In this document: positions 2,552 through 52,704 of the stretch, piece by piece
Numbering within the stretch: the first letter of the stretch is position 1
How the letters are laid out: every line of letters begins with the position of its first letter
Source: Nitrospina sp. LS_NOB
GTDB lineage: Bacteria > Nitrospinota > Nitrospinia > Nitrospinales > VA-1
DNA: 64,000 bases
NCBI GenBank assembly: GCA_001542995.1
Contig: LFLA01000014.1
Span: forward strand, 96,556-160,555
Reading direction: 5' to 3'
Made by a program: the position numbers and the translations under genes
The notes under the pieces: model-generated
Told to the model about the DNA's origin: nothing
What the model saw: the letters and a program-made list of their open reading frames with translations, nothing else
Databases searched by the model: none

Positions 2552-3724
2552 TCAAGACGATTTGGATTCCGCCCGTGGAAGGTTGGGTTTGGGATTGATC
2601 ATATCTTTCTTACTGAGAATGTCGATGAGGTTTTTGTCCCGGCAGGCGACGGCAATATCGAGCAATCCATCGCCATTAAAATCCGCCACCGCCATGCCCT
2701 GGGGATGCTCATCGACCCGATGGTAAATAGGGGGATAAGTGAAGGTTCCGTTTCCCTTGCCAAGAGAAACACTGATCATGTCATCGGTGGCATTGGAGAC
2801 GGCTATATCCTCAAAACCATCACCGGTAAAATCGGCAGCCACGACATATTTCGGAAAATTCCCCGAAGCAAAATCCTTCAATGAATCGAAAGTCTTATCA
2901 CCTTTGTTTATAAGCGTGGTCAGAGCATGCAGAGAGTTGCTGGAAGTCACAAATTCCTTCAACCCGTCATTGTTCACATCCAAGCTGACAATGGTGAGGG
3001 GCTGTTTCCCACCTTTAAAGACATCTGAGCTTTCGAATTTTCCATCGCCCTTGCCCCAGAGAATTTGAACGCCGGTAAACCCATTACCCGCTAGAGCTAC
3101 CGCGACATCTACCTTTCCATCCTGATTGTAATCGTCGACAACAACCCCTGTTGGCTGCCCCTTGACAGGCATGGAATCCGGATCAGAAAAAAACCCATTG
3201 CCTTTCCCCAGCATCACAACCACATTCGAAAAGCGCATGGTGATCACCAGGTCAATTTTCCCGTCAGAATTAAAATCGCCAGATGACATGTTGAGGGGAA
3301 TTTTTCCTGGCTTAAGCACTTGGCTTGTTTTTTGGAAACTTCCCAACCGCGTGTTCAAAAATATCTGGATGGTCTGGTCAGCATAATTGAGCACTGCAAT
3401 ATCTGTGTAACCGTCTTCATTGAAATCTCCCGAAACCAGACAAATCGGGTCTCTGCCGGTTCTATAAACAAGCTGATCCCTAAAAGTTCCATCACCCATT
3501 CCCTTAAAAAATGAAAAAGAATCCCCGCCAGTATTGGTCACAACCAAATCCGGAACTTTGTCACGGTTAAAATCATCGGTAATGAGAAAAGAAGGTTCTT
3601 TTCCCGTATCCATGGAATAGCTCAAGGCAAAAATGCGGGGCATTTTTTTCCGGGCCTTGGGGGGCGGGCACCCCAGCAGGACAAAAACCATCAGGAACGC
3701 AATTATTGAATAATGTTTTTTCAT
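2552..3724 (-). CDS. FG-GAP/VCBS repeat lipoprotein
   Basis: Repeated DFNxDGxxD motifs. MKKHYS... start at 3724 gives a signal peptide with LLGC lipobox. Confidence 0.85.
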   Translation of the reverse strand: MKKHYSIIAFLMVFVLLGCPPPKARKKMPRIFALSYSMDTGKEPSFLITDDFNRDKVPDLVVTNTGGDSFSFFKGMGDGTFRDQLVYRTGRDPICLVSGDFNEDGYTDIAVLNYADQTIQIFLNTRLGSFQKTSQVLKPGKIPLNMSSGDFNSDGKIDLVITMRFSNVVVMLGKGNGFFSDPDSMPVKGQPTGVVVDDYNQDGKVDVAVALAGNGFTGVQILWGKGDGKFESSDVFKGGKQPLTIVSLDVNNDGLKEFVTSSNSLHALTTLINKGDKTFDSLKDFASGNFPKYVVAADFTGDGFEDIAVSNATDDMISVSLGKGNGTFTYPPIYHRVDEHPQGMAVADFNGDGLLDIAVACRDKNLIDILSKKDMINPKPNLPRAESKSS

Positions 3725-3776
3725 GAAGCTCCGTTGAAAAAAAGGAGAGTACCACAGGAACCTTGGGGAAACAATG

Positions 3777-5063
3777 TTACACAGCCGGGCTGGCACTTTT
3801 TGCGGGGAGATGAGCCTGTTGACGCAATACAAAATGCCCCAGAATCTTTTGCGCAAAGGTAAAAGCCAACGACAGGCCCGCCGTTTCCATTATGATTTTT
3901 TTATACGGGTCGTGTCCGGAAACACTGCTGAACATGGCTTTCATAAAGTCGGATCTTTCTGCGGCCACTGCAATCATATGATCCATGAACTTGAATCGTG
4001 TCGCCAGATTGGTCAAAACCCGTACGGCGCGCCCATAGGGGAGGTCTGCGGTCAGTTCATGGCAGTCCTGGTAAAAGTTTTCAGCGAAGGCATTTTTGGA
4101 GACTCCATGCCTCATGATGGAACGAGCTGCATAAATGCCGGTAATGATGGCTGAGTTAATGCCCTTGCCCTTGAAAGGCCGCATGAGTCCTGCCGAGTCA
4201 CCTATCGTGACGTAACGGTCGCCGAATAAATTTTGGGCCGGAGCAATGGGAAACCTGCCTTTAAAATAGTTGAGCGGCTTTTCGCGCCTTTGATGGGGAG
4301 GAAGAAAACGTTGCACCGGAGCCGAACGCAGAAACTCCATCATGATATTTGATGAAACCTTGCGACCCGCAATATTAATGGAAATATGGTCCCCCTTCGG
4401 GGTGACCGCTCCAAATTCCAGGCCAGGATGGGAAAGCAGAAAAGCATGGATCGTGAGACCCATGCTTTGCATGAACTCCTCTCCAGGATAAAGACGCGTG
4501 ATCACCGTATTTAAAAAGTCCGGTTGCCGGTATGGGGTGCCCTGCTCAAAGATCCCGCAACTTCCATCATCAAGGCCAAAAGCCCCTACCACAACCGCGC
4601 TCTTGATGTTTTCGCCCTCACTGTAAATAAGCACTCCGTCAGGGTTGACTTCGATCGCCGTTACGCGGTTATGAACCACTTGGGCGCCAGCCTTCTGAGC
4701 CTCTTCGAGCATGAAGGCATCAAATTTGGAACGATTGACAGAAGCCGATCGGCCATGCTCTTCTCCAACCAAATCCAGGCTCAACAAATCAGAATGCAGG
4801 CGATAACCCGCAATTTCATTGAGCACCAGACTTTCCGGTAAAGTCAGATCCAATTCATTTTTAAGGATTTCCTCGAAAGGCGGAGAGAGCACGCCAATAC
4901 ACTGATTATAGTGACGCTGTTCTGCGAATTTTTTATGCTCAAGCAACACCACATTTATCTTCCTGCCCAACCGTTTGGCTTCTCTTAAGAGAGTCATAGC
5001 ACAGGCTGATCCGCCGGGGCCTCCTCCAACAATACAAACTGTATCGCCATCATTAATGAGCAT
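3777..5063 (-). CDS. FAD-dependent oxidoreductase, geranylgeranyl reductase family
   Basis: IVGGGPGG FAD motif, RSKFD, and IGDSAG...PFKGKGI. Start placed at MLINDG. Confidence 0.8.
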   Translation of the reverse strand: MLINDGDTVCIVGGGPGGSACAMTLLREAKRLGRKINVVLLEHKKFAEQRHYNQCIGVLSPPFEEILKNELDLTLPESLVLNEIAGYRLHSDLLSLDLVGEEHGRSASVNRSKFDAFMLEEAQKAGAQVVHNRVTAIEVNPDGVLIYSEGENIKSAVVVGAFGLDDGSCGIFEQGTPYRQPDFLNTVITRLYPGEEFMQSMGLTIHAFLLSHPGLEFGAVTPKGDHISINIAGRKVSSNIMMEFLRSAPVQRFLPPHQRREKPLNYFKGRFPIAPAQNLFGDRYVTIGDSAGLMRPFKGKGINSAIITGIYAARSIMRHGVSKNAFAENFYQDCHELTADLPYGRAVRVLTNLATRFKFMDHMIAVAAERSDFMKAMFSSVSGHDPYKKIIMETAGLSLAFTFAQKILGHFVLRQQAHLPAKSASPAV

Positions 5064-42590: not shown

Positions 42591-43521
42591 CCCCACAGTG
42601 TTTCAGCTCCAGGGTTTTGGATTTGCTGTCCAGAGTCGCAGATGTCTCTAAAGGAAGGGTCCAGACCTCTTTGCCGTGACCTATCGGACAGTGAGTCAAA
42701 ATCGGGAATCCCGGTTTTGGGAAAAGGTCCGCGAGAATATCTTCAATTGTCCCGTCACCTTTGTGTTGCGGCCGGCAGTTGACCATTTCCCCGAAAATTA
42801 ACCCGCGCACTCCTTTGAACATCCCCGCATTTTTTAACTGCCACAGCATTCCATCAATCCGGTACAAAGGCTCATTGACATCTTCTATCAATAAAATCCT
42901 GTTCCGGGTGTTAATTTCATAGGGGGTGTTTAACGAACGGCACAACAATGTCAAACAGCCTCCCGCAATTTTACCTTGAGCCACTCCTTTGGAAAACACC
43001 TTTGCCTTGGGAGAATGAAATACCTGGCTCTTGGCATCGCCGGTCAACAATGCCTTAAATTGCCGACGTGACTTTTTCATTTCAGCCCGGCCAAAACTCC
43101 CGGCAACCATCGGGCCGTGAAATGCGACCAGCCCGCATTCTTGCACCAGAAAATGGAGTAGCAGGGTTATATCGCTGGACCCCACCACGACTTTGGCATG
43201 AGCTCTTATCTCAGCAGGCTTAAGATAAGGAAGAACACGATTAGCGCCATAGCCCCCGCGAGCGCAAAAAATTGCCCGGACCTCGCGGTTCCTGAACATA
43301 TCCATGATATCCTGAGCTCGATCCTTATCGGGACCTGCCATAAAACGGGAACGGGCATGAACATGTCGGCCCAACAAGGGCTCAAACCCCATGCCACGGA
43401 TCACTTCCAACCCGGTTTCCAACTGTCCCCTGTCAACCGGACCCGCTGGAGCCACCACACCGACAACATCTCCCTCTCTCAATGAGGGCGGACGGATCAG
43501 GGAACGAATCGAATTCGACAT
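42583..43521 (-). CDS. ldcA: LD-carboxypeptidase (S66 family)
   Basis: RGGYG, GSSDIT, HGPM, IEDVNE and PIGHG. Confidence 0.85.
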
Positions 43522-43582
43522 TACAAATTACCTTTGAAGGATTACAATACCGACTTCAATGAACCTTATCCTTTATTGAAAA

Positions 43583-43945
43583 ATGATTTCTGTTGCCGCT
43601 ATCATTCAAGCCGGAATGGGGCCTGCCCGGTTTCCCGGTAAAAGCCTGCGCCCGATTGCGGGCCTACCCCTGCCGGAGCATATCATTATTCGTTTAAAAC
43701 AGGTGCCGGAAATTGCCGGATTCATTGCACAAGTCTTTGCCGCCATCCCCTGGCATAGAAATGCAGCCGGACTCCAGTTTGTTTACTCTAGACATTTTCA
43801 GGGACAGGTAAAAAACACCGGGAATACCTGTTGTCCGCAATGTCGGAAACTTCTGCTCGAAAGAATCGGGTTTCAGGTCTTAAGCCTTCATTTAAAAGGG
43901 TACCGTTGCCCCTTCTGTAATGTTATGGTACCTTGTCGGCGGGTT
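43583..43945 (+). pseudogene. Chimeric remnant: SpsF-like cytidylyltransferase N-terminus joined to a radical-SAM (AmmeMemoRadiSam-like) C-terminal Zn-ribbon
   Basis: IIQAGMGPARFPGKSL (cf. IIQARMGSxRxPGK) followed by AGLQFVY...NTCCPQCRKLLLERIGF...CPFC. Confidence 0.55.
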
Positions 43946-44080
43946 ATAATTTTGTTCATAAAACACCACCCCGATCATGGCCGTTGGTATAAAAGCAGCC
44001 TTCGGTACTATTTCTCGCAAAATTAACATTCCTGAATAGTATTTTAGCAAACCCCGATTTAAGCATTAAAAGAATCACTT

Positions 44081-45661
44081 ATGACTGAAGACCAAAAGAA
44101 AAAACTGGAACGACAGCTTTGGAATATCGCCAATGAATTACGCGGGAAAATGGCAGCCGATGAATTTCGCGACTATATTCTTGGATTCATTTTCTACAAA
44201 TACCTGTCTGAAAAGCAACATCTTTATGCCAACGAGTTACTCGAAACCGAAAACGTCAAAAATTATACTGATGTAGCCGACGAGGACGATATCGAAGCGA
44301 TCAAAGAAGAGTCTTTGATCAAGCTCGGGTATTTTTTGCGCCCTGGCGAGTTGTTCGCCGCACTCACCCAAAAGGGCAATGCGGATGTTGAGGAGGAAAG
44401 CAATTTCATCCTCGAAGACCTGCAAGGCATTCTTAATTCGATTGAGCAAAGCACGATGGGCACGGAGAGCGAGGACGATTTTAACCAGCTTTTCGAAGAT
44501 ATGGATCTGAGCAGCACCAAGCTGGGCCGCAGTGTCGAGGCCAGAAATACGCTGATTGCCAAGGTTCTTTCCCACCTGAATAAAATCGACTTCGCGCTCG
44601 AAGATTCTGAATCCGATATTCTGGGCGATGCCTATGAATACCTGATTGCACAATTTGCATCCGGTGCCGGTAAAAAAGCCGGTGAATTCTACACCCCGCA
44701 GCAGGTTTCCAAAATCCTCGCCAAAATTGTGACGCTCGATAAAACACGGATTAAATCGGCCTATGACCCCGCATGTGGCTCCGGCTCTCTATTGTTGCGC
44801 ATTGCCCGCGAGGCCGATGTCGGGGAATTCTTCGGGCAGGAGCTGAACCGCACCACCTACAACCTCGCCCGCATGAACATGATTTTGCACGATGTGCATT
44901 TCAGCAAGTTTGATATCCGCCAGGAAGACACGCTGGAACACCCGCAACATCTGGACGAGCGGTTTGACGTGGTGGTGGCCAATCCGCCGTTTTCTGCCCG
45001 GTGGAAGGGCAAGGATAATCCTCTCAATGAAACCGACGACCGGTTCAGCCAGTATGGCGCCCTGGCACCGACCACCAAGGCGGATTTCGCCTTTGTGCAG
45101 CATATGATCCACCAGTTGAACGACAGCGGCACCATGGCCGTGGTTTTACCGCATGGCGTATTATTCCGTGGCGCGGCTGAGGGCAAAATCCGCCAATACA
45201 TCATTCAAGAGCAAAATTATCTGGATGCGGTGATCGGCCTGCCTGCCAACCTGTTTTACGGCACCAGCATTCCGGCCTGTATTCTGGTGTTCAAGAAATG
45301 CCGTGTGCATGACGACGATATTCTATTCATTGACGCCAGCCAACATTTCGAGAAGGTCGGCAACCAGAACGCGCTGACCGATGAGCACGTTGCCAGGATT
45401 GTCGAGACCTATCAGAACCGCGAGAATATAGACAAATACGCCTATGCCGCGCCGCTGAGCGAGATTGCCGAGAACGACTATAACCTCAACATTCCACGCT
45501 ATGTGGATACCTTTGAGGAGGAAGCACCGGTGGATGTCGAAGCGGTCGCGGCGGAGCTACAAGCACTGAAAAGCGATATGCAGGCCACCGATGCCACTAT
45601 CGCCGGATTTTGTAAGGAGCTGGGAATATCCAGCCCGTTTCAGGTATCGGTGAGCGAATGA
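44081..45661 (+). CDS. hsdM: Type I R-M methyltransferase subunit
   Basis: LWNIANELRG, GEFYTP, DPACGSG, NPPF and PHGVLFRG. Confidence 0.96.
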   Translation: MTEDQKKKLERQLWNIANELRGKMAADEFRDYILGFIFYKYLSEKQHLYANELLETENVKNYTDVADEDDIEAIKEESLIKLGYFLRPGELFAALTQKGNADVEEESNFILEDLQGILNSIEQSTMGTESEDDFNQLFEDMDLSSTKLGRSVEARNTLIAKVLSHLNKIDFALEDSESDILGDAYEYLIAQFASGAGKKAGEFYTPQQVSKILAKIVTLDKTRIKSAYDPACGSGSLLLRIAREADVGEFFGQELNRTTYNLARMNMILHDVHFSKFDIRQEDTLEHPQHLDERFDVVVANPPFSARWKGKDNPLNETDDRFSQYGALAPTTKADFAFVQHMIHQLNDSGTMAVVLPHGVLFRGAAEGKIRQYIIQEQNYLDAVIGLPANLFYGTSIPACILVFKKCRVHDDDILFIDASQHFEKVGNQNALTDEHVARIVETYQNRENIDKYAYAAPLSEIAENDYNLNIPRYVDTFEEEAPVDVEAVAAELQALKSDMQATDATIAGFCKELGISSPFQVSVSE

Positions 45662-46869
45662 CACAGACACAAGAACATAACGTGCCTGCCTTGCGGTTTC
45701 CTGAGTTTAGCGGGGAGTGGGAAAGCAATACTATTGCCGATGTGGCTGAAGTAAAAGGAGGCAAACGATTACCTCTGGGAAATTCACTATCTGATATAGA
45801 TACAGGCTTCCCGTATATTACTGTTTCGGATTTTGAAAACGGTTCCGTAAGTCTCGAAAAAATTAAGTTTGTTCCGAAAAGCGTGCAACCATCAATTGCA
45901 CGATACACGATTTCATCGGACGACATTTATATTTCGGTTGCTGGCACTCTTGGATTGGTTGGAATAATCCCACAAAAACTGGGTGGAGCAAACCTAACAG
46001 AGAATGCGGATAAGCTTACTAAAATCACCTTAAATCGTGATTTTCTACTCCAATTTCTAAAATCAGAACGATTGAAAAAACTGATAAAATCTGTGCAAAC
46101 CAACAATGCACAACCCAAACTTTCTATTGCTGCAATTAAAAAGATGAAAGTTGGTTTCCCAGACGCCCCCGAGCAACAAAAAATCGCCGATTTCCTATCC
46201 TCGGTCGATAGCAAAATCGAACAACTCAGCAAGAAAAAAGCCCTTTTGGAGCAGTACAAAAAAGGCGTGATGCAAAAGCTCTTTTCGAGGGAGCTGCGCT
46301 TCAAAGACGCGAACGGCAATGATTTTCCTGAGTGGGTGGAGAAGCGGCTCTGTAAAATGGCAATAATTGTTATGGGAACTTCTCCTAAATCTGAATCCTA
46401 CAATAATCATTCTGAAGGGTTGCCCCTTATTCAAGGAAACGCAGATATCAGGGATAGAAAATCAGCACCTAGGGTTTTTACATCTGTTGTTACAAAAGAG
46501 TGTCTACCTGCGGACATTCTGTTGAGTGTGAGAGCACCGGTTGGTGAAGTTTCAATTTCAACTCGCCATGCTTGCATTGGGAGAGGTATATCTGCTGTTC
46601 GAGCTACCCAGAGCAATGTTCAAGAATTTTTGTATCAATTTCTTCTTTGGTATGAGCCGCGTTGGAGACGAATTTCTCAAGGTAGCACTTTTGAATCTGT
46701 AAATTCAGATGACATTAAGCAATTAAAATGCCCAAACCCAAGCCAATTAGAACAACAAAAAATTGCTGATTTCCTCTCAAGTATTGACGATAAAATCGAC
46801 CTTATTACCACCGAGCTCACCCAAGCGCAAGTTTTCAAAAAAGGCTTGCTGCAACAGATGTTTGTTTAA
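45658..46869 (+). CDS. hsdS: Type I R-M specificity subunit
   Basis: PALRFPEF, two TRDs each followed by EQQKIADFL, terminal KKGLLQQMFV; ATGA overlap with hsdM. Confidence 0.95.
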   Translation: MTQTQEHNVPALRFPEFSGEWESNTIADVAEVKGGKRLPLGNSLSDIDTGFPYITVSDFENGSVSLEKIKFVPKSVQPSIARYTISSDDIYISVAGTLGLVGIIPQKLGGANLTENADKLTKITLNRDFLLQFLKSERLKKLIKSVQTNNAQPKLSIAAIKKMKVGFPDAPEQQKIADFLSSVDSKIEQLSKKKALLEQYKKGVMQKLFSRELRFKDANGNDFPEWVEKRLCKMAIIVMGTSPKSESYNNHSEGLPLIQGNADIRDRKSAPRVFTSVVTKECLPADILLSVRAPVGEVSISTRHACIGRGISAVRATQSNVQEFLYQFLLWYEPRWRRISQGSTFESVNSDDIKQLKCPNPSQLEQQKIADFLSSIDDKIDLITTELTQAQVFKKGLLQQMFV

Positions 46870-46878
46870 TGGTGGACT

Positions 46879-47499
46879 ATGGAGAAATTAAAAAAAGAAA
46901 TACATAGGGTAAAGCGGCATAATCTGGAATATTACCAAAGCCACCTCACATTGATTGAGGGTTACATCGTAGAAAAACCTGATATATCCATTGAAACATG
47001 CAAAGCATTGATTGAGGGAATATCAAAGCTTGCCCTTCATTTACTCGCACAAGAACCCATAGATTCACATAATAATGCAGATCTTTCTGACCTCTTTAAA
47101 AGATCGCTTTCTGAATTACAAAAAGGGCGCGGCTACTCAGATGTTTTTTTGGTGAAAAGATTAGGGTCAGTTGTACAGTATATTGGTGAAATCCGAAACT
47201 ATCACAGCGACATTAGTCATGGGCGCGCTTCTCTTAAAGATCAAGTAAGTGACGCTGATTTTGCAGAATTAATCATAGGGGTGACTGATAATCTTTGCAC
47301 CTATATGCTTCGCCGATTAGATATGCTGAGCGAGCAAGAACTCCTCTATGAAGACAATCCAGAATTTAACGATTCTCTCGACGAACAACACCCTTTAGAG
47401 GGCCGTGTTCTCTATAGCAAGGCTCTTTTTGACCAAGAATTTGAAACATACGAATTAGAGTTAGGTGATTATATAATGGAAAGTGATACAGAAGAGTAA
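46879..47499 (+). CDS. Abortive-infection Abi_C-like protein (HEPN-like RN...H motif)
   Basis: SIETCKALIE...IGEIRNYHSDISHGR; inserted between hsdS and hsdR. Confidence 0.65.
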   Translation: MEKLKKEIHRVKRHNLEYYQSHLTLIEGYIVEKPDISIETCKALIEGISKLALHLLAQEPIDSHNNADLSDLFKRSLSELQKGRGYSDVFLVKRLGSVVQYIGEIRNYHSDISHGRASLKDQVSDADFAELIIGVTDNLCTYMLRRLDMLSEQELLYEDNPEFNDSLDEQHPLEGRVLYSKALFDQEFETYELELGDYIMESDTEE

Positions 47500-47563
47500 T
47501 TGCCACCGAACTGCGCCAAGCGCAAGCTTTCGATAAGGCTTGCTACAACAAATCTTTATATAA
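47499..47563 (+). pseudogene. Relic 3' end of a second hsdS
   Basis: attgccaccgaactgcgccaagcgcaagctttcgataaggcttgctacaacaaatctttatataa aligns codon-for-codon (1-bp gap) with hsdS 46804-46869. Confidence 0.85.
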
Positions 47564-47587
47564 TACTTGAGGGAAACGGAGTATAAA

Positions 47588-47992
47588 ATGACGGATCAGG
47601 ACATTAGATGGCAACAACGTTTTTCAAATTATAAGCGGGCCTTGGGACAACTTTCCAAGTTCATGCAAACGGAGGAGCTTAACGACTTGGAGAAGCAGGG
47701 GCTTATTCAGGCTTTTGAATATACGCATGAACTGGCTTGGAAAACTTTGAGCGACTTTTTAAAATATAAGGGTAATGCCGAAATTTACGGCTCTAAAGAT
47801 ACAACACGAGGGGCCTTCGCTCTTGACCTCATCGAAAATGGCAATGTCTGGATGGATATGATTGATAGTCGCAATATGACGTCTCACACCTACAATGAAT
47901 CCGTCACAGAAGAAATCATTGAAAGCATCACCTATGATTACTATCCCGCTTTTGGCGCGTTAGAAACAAAACTGGAAGATCTCATCACATGA
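47588..47992 (+). CDS. HEPN toxin, HI0074 (nucleotidyltransferase substrate-binding) family
   Basis: RWQQRFSNY, GLIQAFEYTHELAWK and RNMTSHTY (RX4HXY). Confidence 0.9.
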   Translation: MTDQDIRWQQRFSNYKRALGQLSKFMQTEELNDLEKQGLIQAFEYTHELAWKTLSDFLKYKGNAEIYGSKDTTRGAFALDLIENGNVWMDMIDSRNMTSHTYNESVTEEIIESITYDYYPAFGALETKLEDLIT

Positions 47993-50900
47993 ATTCGGGT
48001 TTAAGCGCCAGTAATACTCAAAAAATCTACGGAGTTTTTCAAAACTTTGGTCAAATAGATTCATGTCTATTATATGGCTCACGCGCAATGGGAACTTATA
48101 AGGATGGCTCAGATATTGATCTAACCTTAAAGGGAGCAAACCTTGATTTGAATATCTTGAAGCGGGTTACTAATGCGCTTGATGATTTACTGTTACCCTA
48201 TCATTTTGATTTGTCTATTTATGCGAAATTGCAAAATCAGGATATTATCGACCATATAAATCGCGTTGGCGTACCATTTTATCAAAAAGAAAAGCCAGTA
48301 AAAAGCAAGGCTACACAATCAGAATTAGAGCTAGAAAATAACCTAATCGCTCAACTGCAAACATTGGGCTATGAAAAAGTACCTATTGAAGATGAAGATG
48401 CACTTTTAATCAATCTTAAAAAGCAACTCGAAAAACATAACAGGACTCTTCTCTCAGATCTAGAATTCCGCCAAATCCTCAATAAACTGGCGAAGGGAAA
48501 CATCTTTGAAAAAGCCAAAATCCTGCGTGATAGGGTCGATTATATCAAAGACGATGGTGAGACCGGCTATATTGAGCTGATCGATCAAATCCACTGGTGC
48601 AAAAACCAATACCAGGTGACGCATCAGGTCACGATGAAAGGCAAATACGCCAACCGCTATGACGTGACGATTCTGGTCAACGGCCTGCCCCTGGTGCAGA
48701 TTGAGCTAAAGCGCCGTGGTCTGGAAATGAAAGAAGCGTTCAACCAGACCAACCGATACCACCGGCATTCGTTTTCGGCAGGCTATGGGCTGTTTGGCTA
48801 TATCCAGCTTTTTGTGATCAGCAACGGGGTCAACACCAGGTATTACGCCAACAATCCGGTCAACAAACGCGATTTCAAGCAGACGTTTTTCTGGTCAGAC
48901 AAGGACAACAGGAAAATTACTCAGCTTAGCGAATTTGCCGAAGCGTTTTTGGAGAAATGCCAGCTTTCAAAAATGATCACTAAATATGTGGTGCTGAACG
49001 AAAGTTCCACCACCTTGATGGTGTTGCGCCCGTATCAATATTATACGGTTGAAGCCATTGTTGAACAGGTGCGCAATACCGGGAAACACGGCTATATCTG
49101 GCACACGACCGGATCAGGCAAAACCCTCACCTCTTTCAAGGCCGCACAGATTCTCACGCAATCGCCCCAGGTGCATAAGGTGGTGTTTGTGGTCGATAGA
49201 AAAGACCTCGATTACCAGACCATCAAAGAGTTCAACAGCTTTTCCGCAGGTTCAGTGGACGCCACCAACAACACCCGGAAACTGGTGGAACAGTTCGCCG
49301 ATGATACAAAGCTTATTGTAACCACCCTGCAAAAGCTCAACACCGCAATCAGCAAGACCGTGTATCTTGCCGGCATGTCAAGGCTGCAAGACAAGCGCAT
49401 GGTATTCATCTTTGACGAATGCCACCGCAGCCAGTTTGGAGACACCCACAAACGCATCAAGGCGTTTTTTCATAACGTGCAGATGTTCGGCTTTACCGGC
49501 ACGCCGATTTTTCCTGCCAATGCCGCCAGGAATGCGCTTGGAAAACGCACGACCAAAGACCTGTTTGGCGAATGTCTGCATAAGTATGTGATTACGGATG
49601 CTATCCGCGATGAAAACGTGCTGAAGTTTTCAGTCGAGTATATCCGCACAGTGAAACAAAAGGACAGTGTGGCCGATATTGAAGTCGAGGCGATTGATAC
49701 GGCGGAAGTGATGGAAGCCCCGGAGCGGCTCAACAACATCACCGACTACATCATTGCCAACCATAGCCGGAAAACCCACTCACGAGAATTTAATGCTATT
49801 TTTTGTGTTTCAAACATCAAAACTCTGATGGCCTATTATGAGTTGCTGAAACAGAAAAAAGATGCTGAAAAGCACAACCTGCGGATCGGGGCGATTTTCT
49901 CCTACCAGGCAAACGAAGAAGACAGGGACGCGGACGGAACCGACAGCGATGATATGCCCGATGACAGCAAGCCGATCAACACGCACAGCCGCGAGAAGCT
50001 CGATGAGTATATCGACGACTACAACGCGATGTTTGGCACCAATTATTCGACCGATAATTTCTATGGCTATTACAAGGATATCGGCAAGCGTGTGAAGACG
50101 CGTCAGGTTGATATTCTGCTGGTCGTGAATATGTTTTTAACTGGGTTTGATAGCAAAGCTCTCAATACCATTTATGTGGACAAGAACCTCAAATATCACG
50201 GGCTGATACAGGCTTATTCCCGCACCAACCGGATCATGGGACAAAGGAAGTCCCAAGGGAATGTCGTGTGTTTTCGTAACCTGAAACCGGCCACCGATGA
50301 GGCGATTGAATTATTTGCCAATAAGGATGCCATCGAAGAGATCATTCTGGCACCCTACGAAACCTACCTGAAACGCTTTGCCGATGCCGTTGTGAACCTG
50401 CAAACGATCACACCCACCGTGGACAGTGTTGATGGCCTGCCCACCGAAGACGATGAAGCAAAATTCATTCAGGCTTTCCGCGAGATTATCCGCCTGAAAA
50501 ACGTACTCGACTGCTTCACCGAGTTCAGCTTTGACGATCTCCCTATGGATGAACAGCTTTTTGCTGACTACCGCAGCAAATACCTGGACCTCTACGACAA
50601 GGTTCGAAGCGAAAACGAGAAAGAAAAGGTTTCAATCCTCGATGACATTGATTTTGAGCTTGAGCTGATCCGCAGAGATAAAATCAATGTGAGCTACATC
50701 ATTGCGTTGCTGCAAAACCTGCAAGATACGACACCCGCCAATCTGGAAAAACAACATAAAATAATTTTGGCAATGCTTGATACTGAAACGCAACTTAGAA
50801 GTAAAAAGGAATTAATTGAGAAGTTCATAGCTCACCATTTTCCCAACATACCCAAAGGAGGGGATATTGGCGAAGAATTCGAAAGCTACTGGAATGCGGA

Positions 50901-51126
50901 AAAACGACAAGCCATCGAAGAGCTGAGTACCGCCGAAGGCCTGGACCTGGAAGGGTTGCAAAAGGTCATAGACGACTATTTGTTCACTGATAAATCCCCC
51001 ATGCGGGATGATGTGATCGGAATCATGAGCAAGCGTCCTGCCCTCAAAGAACGCCGCACGGTTTCTGAACGCATTATCGACAAAATAAAATCCTTCGTGG
51101 AAACATTTATTGATGGTATTGATTAA
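47989..51126 (+). CDS. hsdR: MNT nucleotidyltransferase fused to type I restriction endonuclease subunit R
   Basis: First ~98 aa carry GSRAMGTYKDGSDID (GSX10DXD) and end GVPFY. Then QSELELE, RYDVTILVNGLPLVQIELK, HTTGSGKT, DECHR and FTGTP, with no intervening stop. Confidence 0.92.
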   Translation: MNSGLSASNTQKIYGVFQNFGQIDSCLLYGSRAMGTYKDGSDIDLTLKGANLDLNILKRVTNALDDLLLPYHFDLSIYAKLQNQDIIDHINRVGVPFYQKEKPVKSKATQSELELENNLIAQLQTLGYEKVPIEDEDALLINLKKQLEKHNRTLLSDLEFRQILNKLAKGNIFEKAKILRDRVDYIKDDGETGYIELIDQIHWCKNQYQVTHQVTMKGKYANRYDVTILVNGLPLVQIELKRRGLEMKEAFNQTNRYHRHSFSAGYGLFGYIQLFVISNGVNTRYYANNPVNKRDFKQTFFWSDKDNRKITQLSEFAEAFLEKCQLSKMITKYVVLNESSTTLMVLRPYQYYTVEAIVEQVRNTGKHGYIWHTTGSGKTLTSFKAAQILTQSPQVHKVVFVVDRKDLDYQTIKEFNSFSAGSVDATNNTRKLVEQFADDTKLIVTTLQKLNTAISKTVYLAGMSRLQDKRMVFIFDECHRSQFGDTHKRIKAFFHNVQMFGFTGTPIFPANAARNALGKRTTKDLFGECLHKYVITDAIRDENVLKFSVEYIRTVKQKDSVADIEVEAIDTAEVMEAPERLNNITDYIIANHSRKTHSREFNAIFCVSNIKTLMAYYELLKQKKDAEKHNLRIGAIFSYQANEEDRDADGTDSDDMPDDSKPINTHSREKLDEYIDDYNAMFGTNYSTDNFYGYYKDIGKRVKTRQVDILLVVNMFLTGFDSKALNTIYVDKNLKYHGLIQAYSRTNRIMGQRKSQGNVVCFRNLKPATDEAIELFANKDAIEEIILAPYETYLKRFADAVVNLQTITPTVDSVDGLPTEDDEAKFIQAFREIIRLKNVLDCFTEFSFDDLPMDEQLFADYRSKYLDLYDKVRSENEKEKVSILDDIDFELELIRRDKINVSYIIALLQNLQDTTPANLEKQHKIILAMLDTETQLRSKKELIEKFIAHHFPNIPKGGDIGEEFESYWNAEKRQAIEELSTAEGLDLEGLQKVIDDYLFTDKSPMRDDVIGIMSKRPALKERRTVSERIIDKIKSFVETFIDGID

Positions 51127-51144
51127 GGGGTTTATCCCAAGACA

Positions 51145-51271
51145 GAGACCTTTCATAACCCGAGATTCTTCGTCACCTTGTTCCTCAGAATGACAAAATG
51201 GCCCAGTATTGTCATTCTGAACGCAGTGAAGAATCTCGCTTTTCTGTTTTATCGACTTATGCAAAGGTCTC
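51145..51271. mobile_element. Composite MITE (127 bp) with 6-bp flanking duplication AAGACA
   Basis: Ends gagacctttcataa and ttatgcaaaggtctc; aagaca at 51139-51144 and 51272-51277; internal inverted GTCATTCTGA...GAAGAATCTC pair. Confidence 0.85.
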
Positions 51272-51318
51272 AAGACAGGCACAAACCCGTTTATCTGTGT
51301 CTTTTTCTAAAAATTTTT

Positions 51319-51628
51319 CGGGGTTGCCCTTGGATAATGCCTGAAAAGTGCTGTCACGGGAGGCACACGAAAGAGTCGTCCAGGCAGTTATAAGCAGGCC
51401 CGTCTGGTCGAGCATTTTGTCGCAGGAACAACCGCACGAACAGCAACCGGTTTTTGCGGGGTGAACCGCAAAACGCTGGCGCGTAAATTCAATGGTGTCC
51501 CAAAAGCCCGATTCGGGCTATATTTGAAGAAATGTGAGCGGCGTTTTAATAACAGTGACCTGCCAAGCTAATTATCGTAATTAAAACAATTGGTAGATAG
51601 TATTTGATCTGTTTTGCCGGGTCAGTCC
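51319..51628 (+). mobile_element. Internally deleted IS1595-family (IS1016-like) element
   Basis: Remnants SYKQARLVEHFVAGTTART and RKFNGVPKARFGLYLKKCERRFN; degenerate IRs; aaattttt duplicated at 51311-51318 and 51629-51636. Confidence 0.75.
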
Positions 51629-51768
51629 AAATTTTTAATTGCAAGCCATGAATACCCTGTGATAGTTTTTCCGTACGTAAATTTCCTGCATGATGGTTCA
51701 CTTCAAGTTTTCTGCTTTACCAAAGTTAAAGACCCCTTGGAAAGATTACAGTCATATGGAGAATCGGG

Positions 51769-52704
51769 ATGATTGAGGTTGAGAATCTTACCAAGTACTA
51801 TGGGCCAAGAAGAGCCATCAACAATTTAACGTTTCAAATTGCACAGGGGGAAGTCGTTGGTTTTCTAGGCCCCAACGGGGCGGGTAAAAGCACGACCATG
51901 GACATCCTGTCATGCATTCTTCCTGCATCCAGCGGAACGGCCCGGATTCAGGGGTACGACATCTTTGAGCAATCTCTTGAAATCCGAAAAATAATCGGTT
52001 ACCTGCCAGAGACCCCGCCTCTCTATCCGGACATGAGCGTTCGCGATTACCTGATGTTCGCGGCACAAGTCCGGGGACTTGCAGGCAAGCAAACCGGGAC
52101 CGCCGTGGAAAGAGTGATAGAAAAATGTTCCTTAAAAGATGTTGGTCATCGTATCATCGGGCGACTCTCTAAAGGATATCAGCAGCGCGTTGGATTGGCA
52201 CAGGCCATGGTACACGACCCTGACATTCTTATTCTCGACGAACCAACCATTGGCCTGGATCCCATTCAAATTATAGAAATCCGCAAACTGATTCAAGAGT
52301 TGGCCTCTTCGCATACCATCATCCTCAGTTCACACATTCTTCCTGAAATCACACAAATATGCCAGAGAGTCATTATCATTAATGAAGGAGAAATCGCGGC
52401 GGTGGACTCCTTGGAAGGTTTGACCGCCTCACTGAGAAAAAGCGAACGCCTTTCCCTGACCGTAAGGAATAGAGACGATGGAATAGAGGAAAAATTAAAT
52501 TCTTTGAGTCAGGTGCTTTCCGTTTTACCTGGTGAGAAAAACCAGTTTCTGGTTGAATGCGAATTAAACTCCAACCTTCAGGATGAATTCGCGCGTCTGG
52601 CGTTGGAAAACCAATGGGGCCTTGTTGAAATCACACCTATCTCCATGACTCTGGAAGATGTGTTCCTCAAACTGACCATTGAAGAAAAGGATGTGAAGGC
52701 ATGA
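51769..52704 (+). CDS. ABC transporter ATP-binding protein (GldA-like)
   Basis: GPNGAGKS, LSKGYQQR, LDEPT and SSH. Confidence 0.92.
   Translation: MIEVENLTKYYGPRRAINNLTFQIAQGEVVGFLGPNGAGKSTTMDILSCILPASSGTARIQGYDIFEQSLEIRKIIGYLPETPPLYPDMSVRDYLMFAAQVRGLAGKQTGTAVERVIEKCSLKDVGHRIIGRLSKGYQQRVGLAQAMVHDPDILILDEPTIGLDPIQIIEIRKLIQELASSHTIILSSHILPEITQICQRVIIINEGEIAAVDSLEGLTASLRKSERLSLTVRNRDDGIEEKLNSLSQVLSVLPGEKNQFLVECELNSNLQDEFARLALENQWGLVEITPISMTLEDVFLKLTIEEKDVKA

Follow-up and report, generated by a model that had tools for sequence, protein, structure and literature searches.

The locus described here raises the question of whether an antitoxin enzyme can be a built-in part of a restriction subunit, and of what such a connection might serve. 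The locus lies in a stretch of 64,000 nucleotides (nt) of Nitrospina sp. LS_NOB (contig LFLA01000014.1, positions 96,556 to 160,555, forward strand; GCA_001542995.1), hereafter called the window, whose source genome is a metagenome-type assembly of 26 contigs and 98.8% completeness. Here, a small gene of the HEPN class is followed by a single open reading frame (ORF; 47989-51126, 1045 amino acids [aa], stop-free throughout), in which a minimal nucleotidyltransferase (MNT) domain is joined to a complete HsdR of a type I restriction-modification (R-M) system. The MNT::HsdR fusion is real and not an artefact. The parts of the gene pair are as follows.

47588-47992, plus strand: candidate HEPN toxin gene, HI0074/NTase_sub_bind family, 134 aa (PF08780, 5.2e-43; TIGR01987, 6.7e-27).
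47989-48282, plus strand: putative MNT antitoxin domain, aa 1-98 of the fusion (Polbeta PF18765, 1.2e-10; PDB 8XEH_E, 4.3e-24).
48283-48312, plus strand: linker QKEKPVKSKA, aa 99-108 of the fusion, ending in AAG where unfused HsdR genes have ATG.
48313-51126, plus strand: complete HsdR, type IC, EcoR124-like, with nuclease, SF2 motor, and C-terminal helical domains (HSDR_N, SWI2_SNF2, T1R_D3-like, EcoR124_C; TIGR00348, 2.3e-151).

The HEPN and MNT::hsdR frames share the ATGA at 47989-47992; the HEPN frame starts with the ATG at 47588, and a TTG is present further upstream at 47567. Near the junction, the sole in-frame ATG, GTG, or TTG is a TTG at codon 126, which falls within the conserved N terminus of HsdR. 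Unfused HsdR orthologues begin with M-[T/A/S]-T-[Q/E]-[S/P]-E, whereas the window has K-A-T-Q-S-E at this position, and a Met at the old HsdR start is found in none of the other MNT::HsdR fusions. Because the start codon of HsdR itself is lost, full-length HsdR can only be made as a fusion. The linker varies across fusions in both sequence and length (approximately 10 to 22 aa). A sequence-only reading of this DNA had described an HI0074-family HEPN gene with an intact RX4HXY motif, its ATGA overlap with one 1045-aa ORF, an MNT domain of about 98 aa with an intact GSX10DXD motif, a 10-aa linker, a complete HsdR, and a junction free of any stop or separate HsdR start; the ORF scan, the Pfam and NCBIfam searches, and the alignments agree with it in all of these respects.

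The junction was checked against assembled Logan contigs, not raw reads, which, together with the metagenome-type origin of the window, would leave room for an artefact in which a missed stop, indel, or start joins two separate genes. However, a 14,125-bp contig of run X1 shows 0 differences from the window over 47500-48900; this run is a sponge metagenome that is possibly the source sample of the window and hence does not count as an independent sample. A 12,376-bp contig of run X2, from another study, spans 47500-48894 with 128 substitutions and 0 gaps, so the reading frame crosses the junction in a diverged relative too. Two more runs, X5 and X6, reach only portions of the stretch, chiefly in HsdR, and were left out of the comparison; none of the runs listed for the locus is an RNA run. 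A search of 5.8 billion proteins, with search words taken from aa 1-125 and candidate lengths near that of the full protein, yielded 12 matches among 184 candidates, of which 11, the window's own included, carry PF18765 plus the full HsdR domain set. The 10 other MNT::HsdR proteins are from 92% down to 45% identical over the first 125 aa and were drawn from NCBI, ENA, JGI, and Logan sources. At the level of genomes, MNT::HsdR is encoded in stop-to-stop frames of 1062 to 1072 aa in three loci from two phyla, namely, metagenome-assembled genomes of Nitrospinales (L007), Nitrospinaceae (L008), and Gammaproteobacteria (L009), and an HI0074-type HEPN gene lies directly upstream in 3/3 of them. The independent fused homologues and the co-occurring HEPN gene that the sequence-only reading had suggested looking for are thus found, and its proviso that the AAG might really be an ATG is all but refuted by the identical X1 contig and by the other fusions, which likewise have no Met there. 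An assembly or sequencing artefact is accordingly so improbable that we rejected it: the second assembly is identical, the relative is gap-free, and the fused homologues are independent.

Several further searches were negative for the fusion. In the PLSDB plasmids, 149 records match part of a 200-aa query, 0 cover at least 80% of it, and MNT::HsdR was not found; a phage search returned 3 partial matches only, and the ESM Atlas returned only HSDR_N clusters at 0.83, which are at the level of leads. The fusion itself is not among the best 150 matches of a search of representative proteins with aa 1-140, presumably because an unfused HsdR stands as the representative of its 50% cluster.

Judged by homology, the HEPN/MNT part is closely related to lpg2920/lpg2921 of Legionella pneumophila, a type VII toxin-antitoxin pair. 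The HEPN protein reaches 94 bits against TIGR01987 (HI0074; cut-off, 55.8) and matches the PDB sequences 8XDJ, 8XEH, and 8XEM, labeled "HEPN toxin," with an E value of 3e-43; NTase_sub_bind is its sole Pfam match, and it has no ATPase domain. In the fusion, Polbeta PF18765 spans aa 11-101, and aa 6-101 match the "MNT" sequences 8XEH_E/8XEO (4.3e-24). The MNT catalytic motif GSX10DXD is complete (G30-S31-X10-D42-I-D44) and is accompanied by a third Asp, D74; these five residues are invariant in 11 MNT::HsdR fusions (alignment A1), and GS...DxD is invariant also in a second MNT alignment (A2). The RX4HXY motif of the HEPN protein reads RNMTSHTY (aa 95-102). The window HEPN keeps Q41, E44, R95, H100, and Y102, as do 12/12 HEPNs adjoining fusions, and among 86 HEPN family members these residues are retained in 77, 83, 85, 83, and 85, respectively.

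As described in the main text of Jin et al. (2024, PMC11586414), the HEPN gene of lpg2920/lpg2921 comes first and overlaps its partner by 8 bp, the HEPN protein is an Mg2+-dependent RNase whose active site is Q44/E47 and not the R/H of RX4HXY, and the MNT poly-AMPylates Y105 of RX4HXY. The same text characterizes this MNT as unusually short (approximately 108 aa), lacking α4, binding the HEPN tetramer only transiently, and modifying it inefficiently (structures 8XDJ, 8XEH, 8XEM, and 8XEO), and it contains 0 occurrences of "restriction" or "phage." The window pair belongs to the same HEPN and MNT subfamilies and shares the HEPN-first, overlapping gene order, the short α4-less MNT, the GSX10DXD motif, RX4HXY with its acceptor Tyr, and the Q/E Mg2+ site. 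The difference lies in the state of the antitoxin: the Legionella MNT is a free 108-aa protein from a pair of two small adjacent genes, whereas in the window it forms the first 98 aa of a 1045-aa HsdR within a type I operon. The AMPylation mechanism of type VII systems, on which the sequence-only reading had drawn, is well grounded by the match to these solved structures. Its picture of RX4HXY needs one qualification: in the closest characterized homologue, the Tyr of this motif is the AMPylation acceptor, but the RNase site is the Q/E site; the window HEPN keeps both sets of residues.

An AlphaFold model of the fusion, based on an 11-row alignment, is poor overall (mean predicted local distance difference test [pLDDT] score, 50.9; predicted template modeling [pTM] score, 0.31), and only the MNT and linker parts are usable. 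In these parts, a confident MNT fold is predicted for aa 10-100 (pLDDT approximately 77 to 86), no secondary structure is seen at about aa 100-116, and the pLDDT is below 50 over aa 102-116. The window MNT appears in the model as a short form, with no helix after the strand at aa 95-99 and no α4. The HepT/MntA system of Shewanella oneidensis, also of type VII (PMC4621449), follows the same logic, with adenylylation of the RX4HXY Tyr of the HEPN protein by an MNT (as summarized in PMC11586414); however, HepT belongs to the DUF86 HEPN family, and MntA has α4 and is free-standing. The NCBIfam models HepT_toxin and MntA_antitoxin score 16.1 and 20.8 bits on the window proteins, against a cut-off of 60. 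The fused MNT is the sole MNT of its family in the genome, which also has a single close HEPN; if the HEPN is toxic, the fused domain is therefore the only candidate antitoxin.

The HsdR part is composed of HSDR_N (aa 110-289), SWI2_SNF2 (349-569), T1R_D3 (600-764), and EcoR124_C (785-1040), as assigned by Pfam, and scores 505.6 bits against TIGR00348 (hsdR; cut-off, 284.55). Residues D225, E239, K241, GSGKT 375-379, and DECH 476-479 are invariant across the 11 fusions; we take D225...E239-X-K241 to be the HsdR nuclease motif and the other two stretches to be helicase motifs I and II. The hsdM, hsdS, and hsdR parts of the operon all have full domain sets, as in type I family C (EcoR124-like). 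PADLOC labels the fusion as REase_I only (1057 bits) and gives no match for the HEPN protein.

The architecture pointed out by the sequence-only reading is thus real, but it is not unique to HsdR, since the same MNT is carried far more often by HsdS. A HMMER scan with aa 1-140 against 1.84 billion representatives gave 2726 matches, from which 46 long ones (all 45 of at least 200 aa among the best 150, plus one of 170 aa) were scanned for domains; 37/46 combine Polbeta with Methylase_S (MNT::HsdS). When a profile of 27 MNT domains was run against longer proteins only, 722 of the 8000 candidates scored had E values of ≤1e-10, and the best 120 of these 722 include 96 with Methylase_S and 7 HsdR fusions, one of which is the window's own. 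The MNT is N-terminal in 91/91 long relatives of at least 440 aa, and GSx(9-12)DxD is kept in 108/108 long relatives. Cultured Flavobacteriaceae, for example, Maribacter dokdonensis, are among the MNT::HsdS carriers, with source names that read only "restriction endonuclease subunit S." MNT::HsdS operons contain an EcoEI-like HsdR in L101, L105, and L133 and a HindI-like HsdR in L088; together with the EcoR124-like HsdR of the window, three HsdR families are found with MNT fusions. In L007, whose HsdR core is 92% identical to that of the window, one operon holds two modules, HEPN2 with MNT2::HsdS (511 aa) and HEPN with MNT::HsdR.

Other partners of this MNT were also noted. P0009 (1272 aa) has an N-terminal MNT of the same family followed by leucyl-tRNA-synthetase Pfam domains and DUF559/MTES_1575, and may be either a real fusion or a gene-calling read-through. 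Further partners (P0180, P0183, P0195, P0238, P0041, and P0272) are Prok-JAB, DUF1016_N, and Mur-ligase domains; Prok-JAB (PF14464) is the partner in four MNT proteins of 253 to 256 aa. Genes for DUF1016/YhcG nucleases adjoin MNT::HsdS in L087 and L088. In the P0048 cluster of 90%-identical proteins, the NCBI S-subunit entry has 380 aa versus 478 aa in other sources; the shorter annotation starts past the MNT domain, and the fusion is thereby hidden.

To what extent is fusion the rule inside type I operons? Sample A consists of 80 loci retrieved with aa 1-204 of the fusion, most of which are type I operons of the window's HsdR family, and sample B consists of the best 80 of 589 loci found by the MNT motif; L080 is common to both. 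In sample A, HEPN/MNT modules are located on HsdR in 3 loci and on HsdS in 3 (L007, L080, and L086), and no unfused HEPN/MNT module was found inside an hsd operon of these 80 loci. Sample B contains 8 modules fused to HsdS, 1 unfused, and 71 standalone pairs, and in 71/72 of its unfused pairs no type I gene was detected within approximately 7 kb. With both samples pooled, 13 fused modules are present inside hsd operons versus 1 unfused module (L153), in which the MNT directly precedes hsdS: the MNT frame ends in TAA, and after 2 nt hsdS begins with an ATG in a different frame. A HEPN gene lies directly upstream in 11/12 testable fused loci outside the window, the exception being L088; L080 begins at a contig edge, so that its upstream HEPN was not testable. 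In 120 genomes of the window's phylum, 3/6 MNT matches are HsdR fusions, from two genera.

In a tree of HsdR cores (FastTree, 73 rows), the fused proteins occupy two distant places, 10 of them in a clade of 14 together with four unfused ones and the other two (P0011 and P0012) beside an unfused Rhodopirellula gene, which forces at least 3 changes of the fused state. Holding the 12 fused rows together in IQ-TREE (28 rows) costs 426 log-likelihood units (approximately unbiased [AU] test, p-AU 0.0014). By these phylogenies, HsdR fusions arose at least twice. The recurrence of fusion speaks in favor of selection for a physical connection to the type I complex, a reading that draws on the unvarying N-terminal position of the MNT, the occurrence with three HsdR families, the catalytic residues kept on both partners, and the near-absence of the unfused arrangement in hsd operons.

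The explanation that best accounts for the whole, and whose chances we consider to be even, is that the MNT tether couples HEPN silencing to an R-M subunit, for the sake of a PrrC-like defense and/or protection of the locus. By analogy with the characterized homologue, the HEPN would be an Mg2+-dependent RNase, and the MNT domain would silence it via poly-AMPylation of Tyr102 in RX4HXY. The tether may make the supply, location, stability, or activity of the antitoxin track the R-M subunit, be it HsdR or HsdS. If this subunit were lost, degraded, or blocked, with HsdR proteolysis in restriction alleviation, anti-restriction proteins, and gene deletion as possible triggers, newly made HEPN would escape AMPylation, and the unmodified HEPN would cleave RNA and arrest growth. 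The outcome would be a second line of defense resembling that of PrrC and/or a guard of the R-M genes against loss; it is this guard or addiction function, the idea of the sequence-only reading, that we infer. A broader and distinctly more doubtful proposal is that short Legionella-type MNTs in hsd operons are, as a rule, tethered to the type I complex (mostly HsdS, sometimes HsdR), making the free HEPN RNase fire upon inhibition, degradation, or loss of the complex. This would amount to a widespread, overlooked abortive infection of the "guarded restriction enzyme" kind, with L007 guarding HsdS and HsdR by separate modules.

A number of observations weigh against such coupling. Because the MNT is N-terminal, a nonsense or frameshift mutation in hsdR still leaves an MNT-bearing fragment, and addiction to a working hsdR is thus weakly enforced. 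Neutralization in type VII systems is covalent, so loss of the MNT frees only new or de-AMPylated HEPN. L088 (1923-4635) has MNT::HsdS with a DUF1016/YhcG nuclease gene instead of a HEPN gene upstream; either the tethered antitoxin has been orphaned or it has swapped partners, and the case indicates that the tether can outlast the toxin. Fused copies are a minority, with 4/80 MNT matches in frames of 492 to 542 aa in a set of 401 genomes from a single phylum. Owing to shared descent, the 13 fused modules do not represent independent events, which limits the strength of that count, and the group examined in the AU test was named after the first tree had been seen. In a tree of MNT domains (166 rows, 105 columns), HsdS-fused domains are scattered among free ones, with 20 changes; this tree is poorly resolved (16/163 branches starred), and its hint of many origins is weak. 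It is likewise too weak to support a single origin for the window's MNT clade and the MNTs of P0010 to P0012 and L009.

Three other explanations were weighed against coupling through the tether. The module could be a neutral hitch-hiker, a mobile HEPN-MNT pair that landed before hsdR or hsdS and lost its stop along with the following start, leaving joined proteins that act independently. An unfused precursor of the kind expected exists in L153, where the MNT stop is 2 nt before the hsdS ATG; the window junction is the HsdR start position merely read as Lys, the short linker is variable, with predicted disorder, the hsdS-hsdR interval collects variable cargo, and close HsdR orthologues (80 to 85% identical) have no MNT. 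What this explanation leaves unaccounted for is the excess of fused over unfused modules inside type I operons (13 versus 1), the involvement of two different subunits and three HsdR families, the at least two origins of HsdR fusions, the uniform orientation (91/91), and the retention of the MNT motif (108/108) and of the HEPN residues (12/12). A neutral read-through fusion is possible in any single case, but it matches the recurrence poorly, and as a general account we consider it unlikely. Stabilization or domestication of a labile antitoxin is a serious rival, albeit one to which we also assign a low probability: the fusion would steady a weak, α4-less MNT and fix its dose, keeping the HEPN reliably silent, and the module would persist as, at most, an addiction cassette of the island rather than a sensor of R-M. 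It fits the main-text account of the Legionella MNT, which is α4-less, transient in binding, inefficient, and called labile (PMC11586414), and that of fused MNT-HEPN proteins, whose isolated MNT is rapidly degraded and is stabilized by fusion (PMC13000451); it also fits the predicted end of the window MNT just past its last strand and the retention of MNT::HsdS without a HEPN gene in L088. The bias in partners is not explained by it, since the best 120 long relatives comprise 96 with Methylase_S, 7 with HsdR, and few with other partners.

The remaining alternative, which we regard as very unlikely, is a repurposed nucleotidyltransferase: the MNT, with the HEPN as its substrate-binding partner (as originally conceived for HI0073/HI0074) and not a toxin, would modify another target at the restriction complex, for example, HsdR itself, DNA ends, or a nucleotide. 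The curated family name, "nucleotidyltransferase substrate-binding subunit," is in line with this, as is the statement in the article text of Anantharaman et al. (PMC3710099) that HEPN-MNT pairs have been domesticated into regulatory nucleotidyltransferases. However, toxin-antitoxin function has been demonstrated for the closest homologue of solved structure, and 12/12 HEPNs adjoining fusions retain the residues of the Mg2+ site as well as the acceptor Tyr, whereas domesticated fused HEPNs typically lose catalytic residues, according to that same text.

Coupling of HEPN silencing to an R-M subunit, as favored here, has several parallels among known systems and would be a variant of the immunity-suicide coupling put forward for PrrC and for R subunits that carry HEPN domains (PMC3506569, PMC3710099). 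PrrC-EcoprrI and RloC, as treated in the main texts of PMC3506569 and PMC3710099, also have a HEPN RNase encoded in a type I (IC) hsd operon and the same proposed logic, in which the RNase is unleashed once restriction is countered. PrrC is silenced by direct noncovalent association, whereas silencing in the window would be enzymatic, via an antitoxin borne by HsdR; moreover, PrrC and RloC join an N-terminal ABC-type ATPase to a C-terminal HEPN, whereas the window HEPN has 134 aa and is ATPase-free. The comparison thus concerns working logic, not family membership. Makarova et al. (2012) and Anantharaman et al. (2013) describe R subunits or helicases of R-M systems that bear a fused HEPN domain, for instance, DUF4145 (PMC3506569, PMC3710099). 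There, as here, a restriction subunit is covalently tied to part of a HEPN toxin system, but it is the toxin domain that is fused, whereas in the window the antitoxin enzyme is fused and the toxin is free. In the "FhepTA" MNT-HEPN proteins (PMC13000451, 2026), an MNT antitoxin likewise takes part in a fusion, which alters MNT stability by the account of the main text; the fusion partner there is the toxin, in contrast to the R-M subunit here, and restriction, HsdS, and HsdR have 0 occurrences in that main text.

The HEPN gene and the fusion are the last two members of one plus-strand operon with the order hsdM, hsdS, Abi_C ORF, HEPN, and MNT::hsdR, whose upstream genes are as follows.

44081-45661, plus strand: hsdM, type I methyltransferase subunit, 526 aa (Pfam N6_Mtase, 1.3e-111; HsdM_N, 1.1e-18).
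45658-46869, plus strand: hsdS, specificity subunit, 403 aa (Pfam Methylase_S, 4.3e-40, two stretches).
46879-47499, plus strand: Abi_C/AbiJ-like ORF, 206 aa (Pfam Abi_C, 3.8e-9; PADLOC AbiJ, 1.6e-5).

The start of hsdS overlaps the hsdM stop, and in the window genome MNT is not joined to hsdS. The island is flanked by hisA/hisF and an LD-carboxypeptidase gene on one side and by an ABC-transporter operon on the other. The guanine-plus-cytosine content is down to 0.39 to 0.41 across 45500-49000, versus approximately 0.45 to 0.53 nearby, which is compatible with a horizontally exchanged variable core of hsdS, the Abi_C ORF, HEPN, and MNT. A scan of 43400-51800 for promoters and terminators gave 15 versus 13.0 and 8 versus 9.4 in shuffles, with none above the shuffles. 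At L007 4904-6881, a divergent HEPN gene and MNT::HsdS are located between hsdM and the Abi_C ORF, where the window has its plain 403-aa hsdS, a difference that points to rapid module turnover between close relatives; the hsdM of L007 is present as two frames (3375-4241 and 4263-4952), being either interrupted or affected by a long-read sequencing error.

The Abi_C/AbiJ-like ORF is accessory cargo and another candidate effector of the HEPN type, for which no antitoxin is visible; it has no mutual similarity with the HEPN protein (E value, 0.63). Its orthologues (72 to 89% identical) occupy the same place in L007 and lie directly before an unfused hsdR in L011 and L015, and more distant relatives (34 to 37%) occur in L026, L039, and L071. 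Type I operons of the window's HsdR family (L010 to L086) have from 0 to approximately 5 kb of variable cargo separating hsdS from hsdR; L086, for example, has DUF2971 and DUF3800 genes, and L133 has a Fic gene. Upstream of hsdM, a 147-aa ORF (43583-44026) matches only the first 41 positions of the CTP_transf_3 (cytidylyltransferase) model (2.5e-5) and probably represents what is left of a gene at the island's left edge; L007 has an ORF of equal size at 2877-3320.

HEPN-MNT systems of type VII, type I R-M operons with embedded cargo, and HEPN toxins linked or fused to R-M subunits are already known. As far as we have seen, the novelty is that the fusion involves the antitoxin enzyme, in an architecture that is common and mostly resides on HsdS. 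The passages of PMC3506569 and PMC3710099 considered here contain no reference to an MNT on HsdR or HsdS, although the additional files could list one. In agreement with the sequence-only reading, which knew of no characterization of the architecture, searches of full texts of Creative Commons-licensed PMC papers and bioRxiv gave no description of MNT::HsdR or MNT::HsdS, with the supplementary architecture tables of Anantharaman et al. (2013) as a place that may list it.

For annotation, hundreds of entries named "restriction endonuclease subunit S" or "subunit R" conceal an antitoxin domain, and toxin-antitoxin and defense-system finders may miss such modules, as PADLOC did here. Coupling of R-M to suicide or dormancy nucleases is a long-standing hypothesis for which PrrC is still the main worked example. 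If the coupling proposed here is true, it would provide a second and mechanistically different case, in which the restriction complex itself physically includes the enzyme that silences the HEPN; with a simple peptide linker as the connection, fused and split forms are cleanly comparable. In this way, the arrangement may couple an RNA-cutting toxin to the condition of the cell's antiviral defense.

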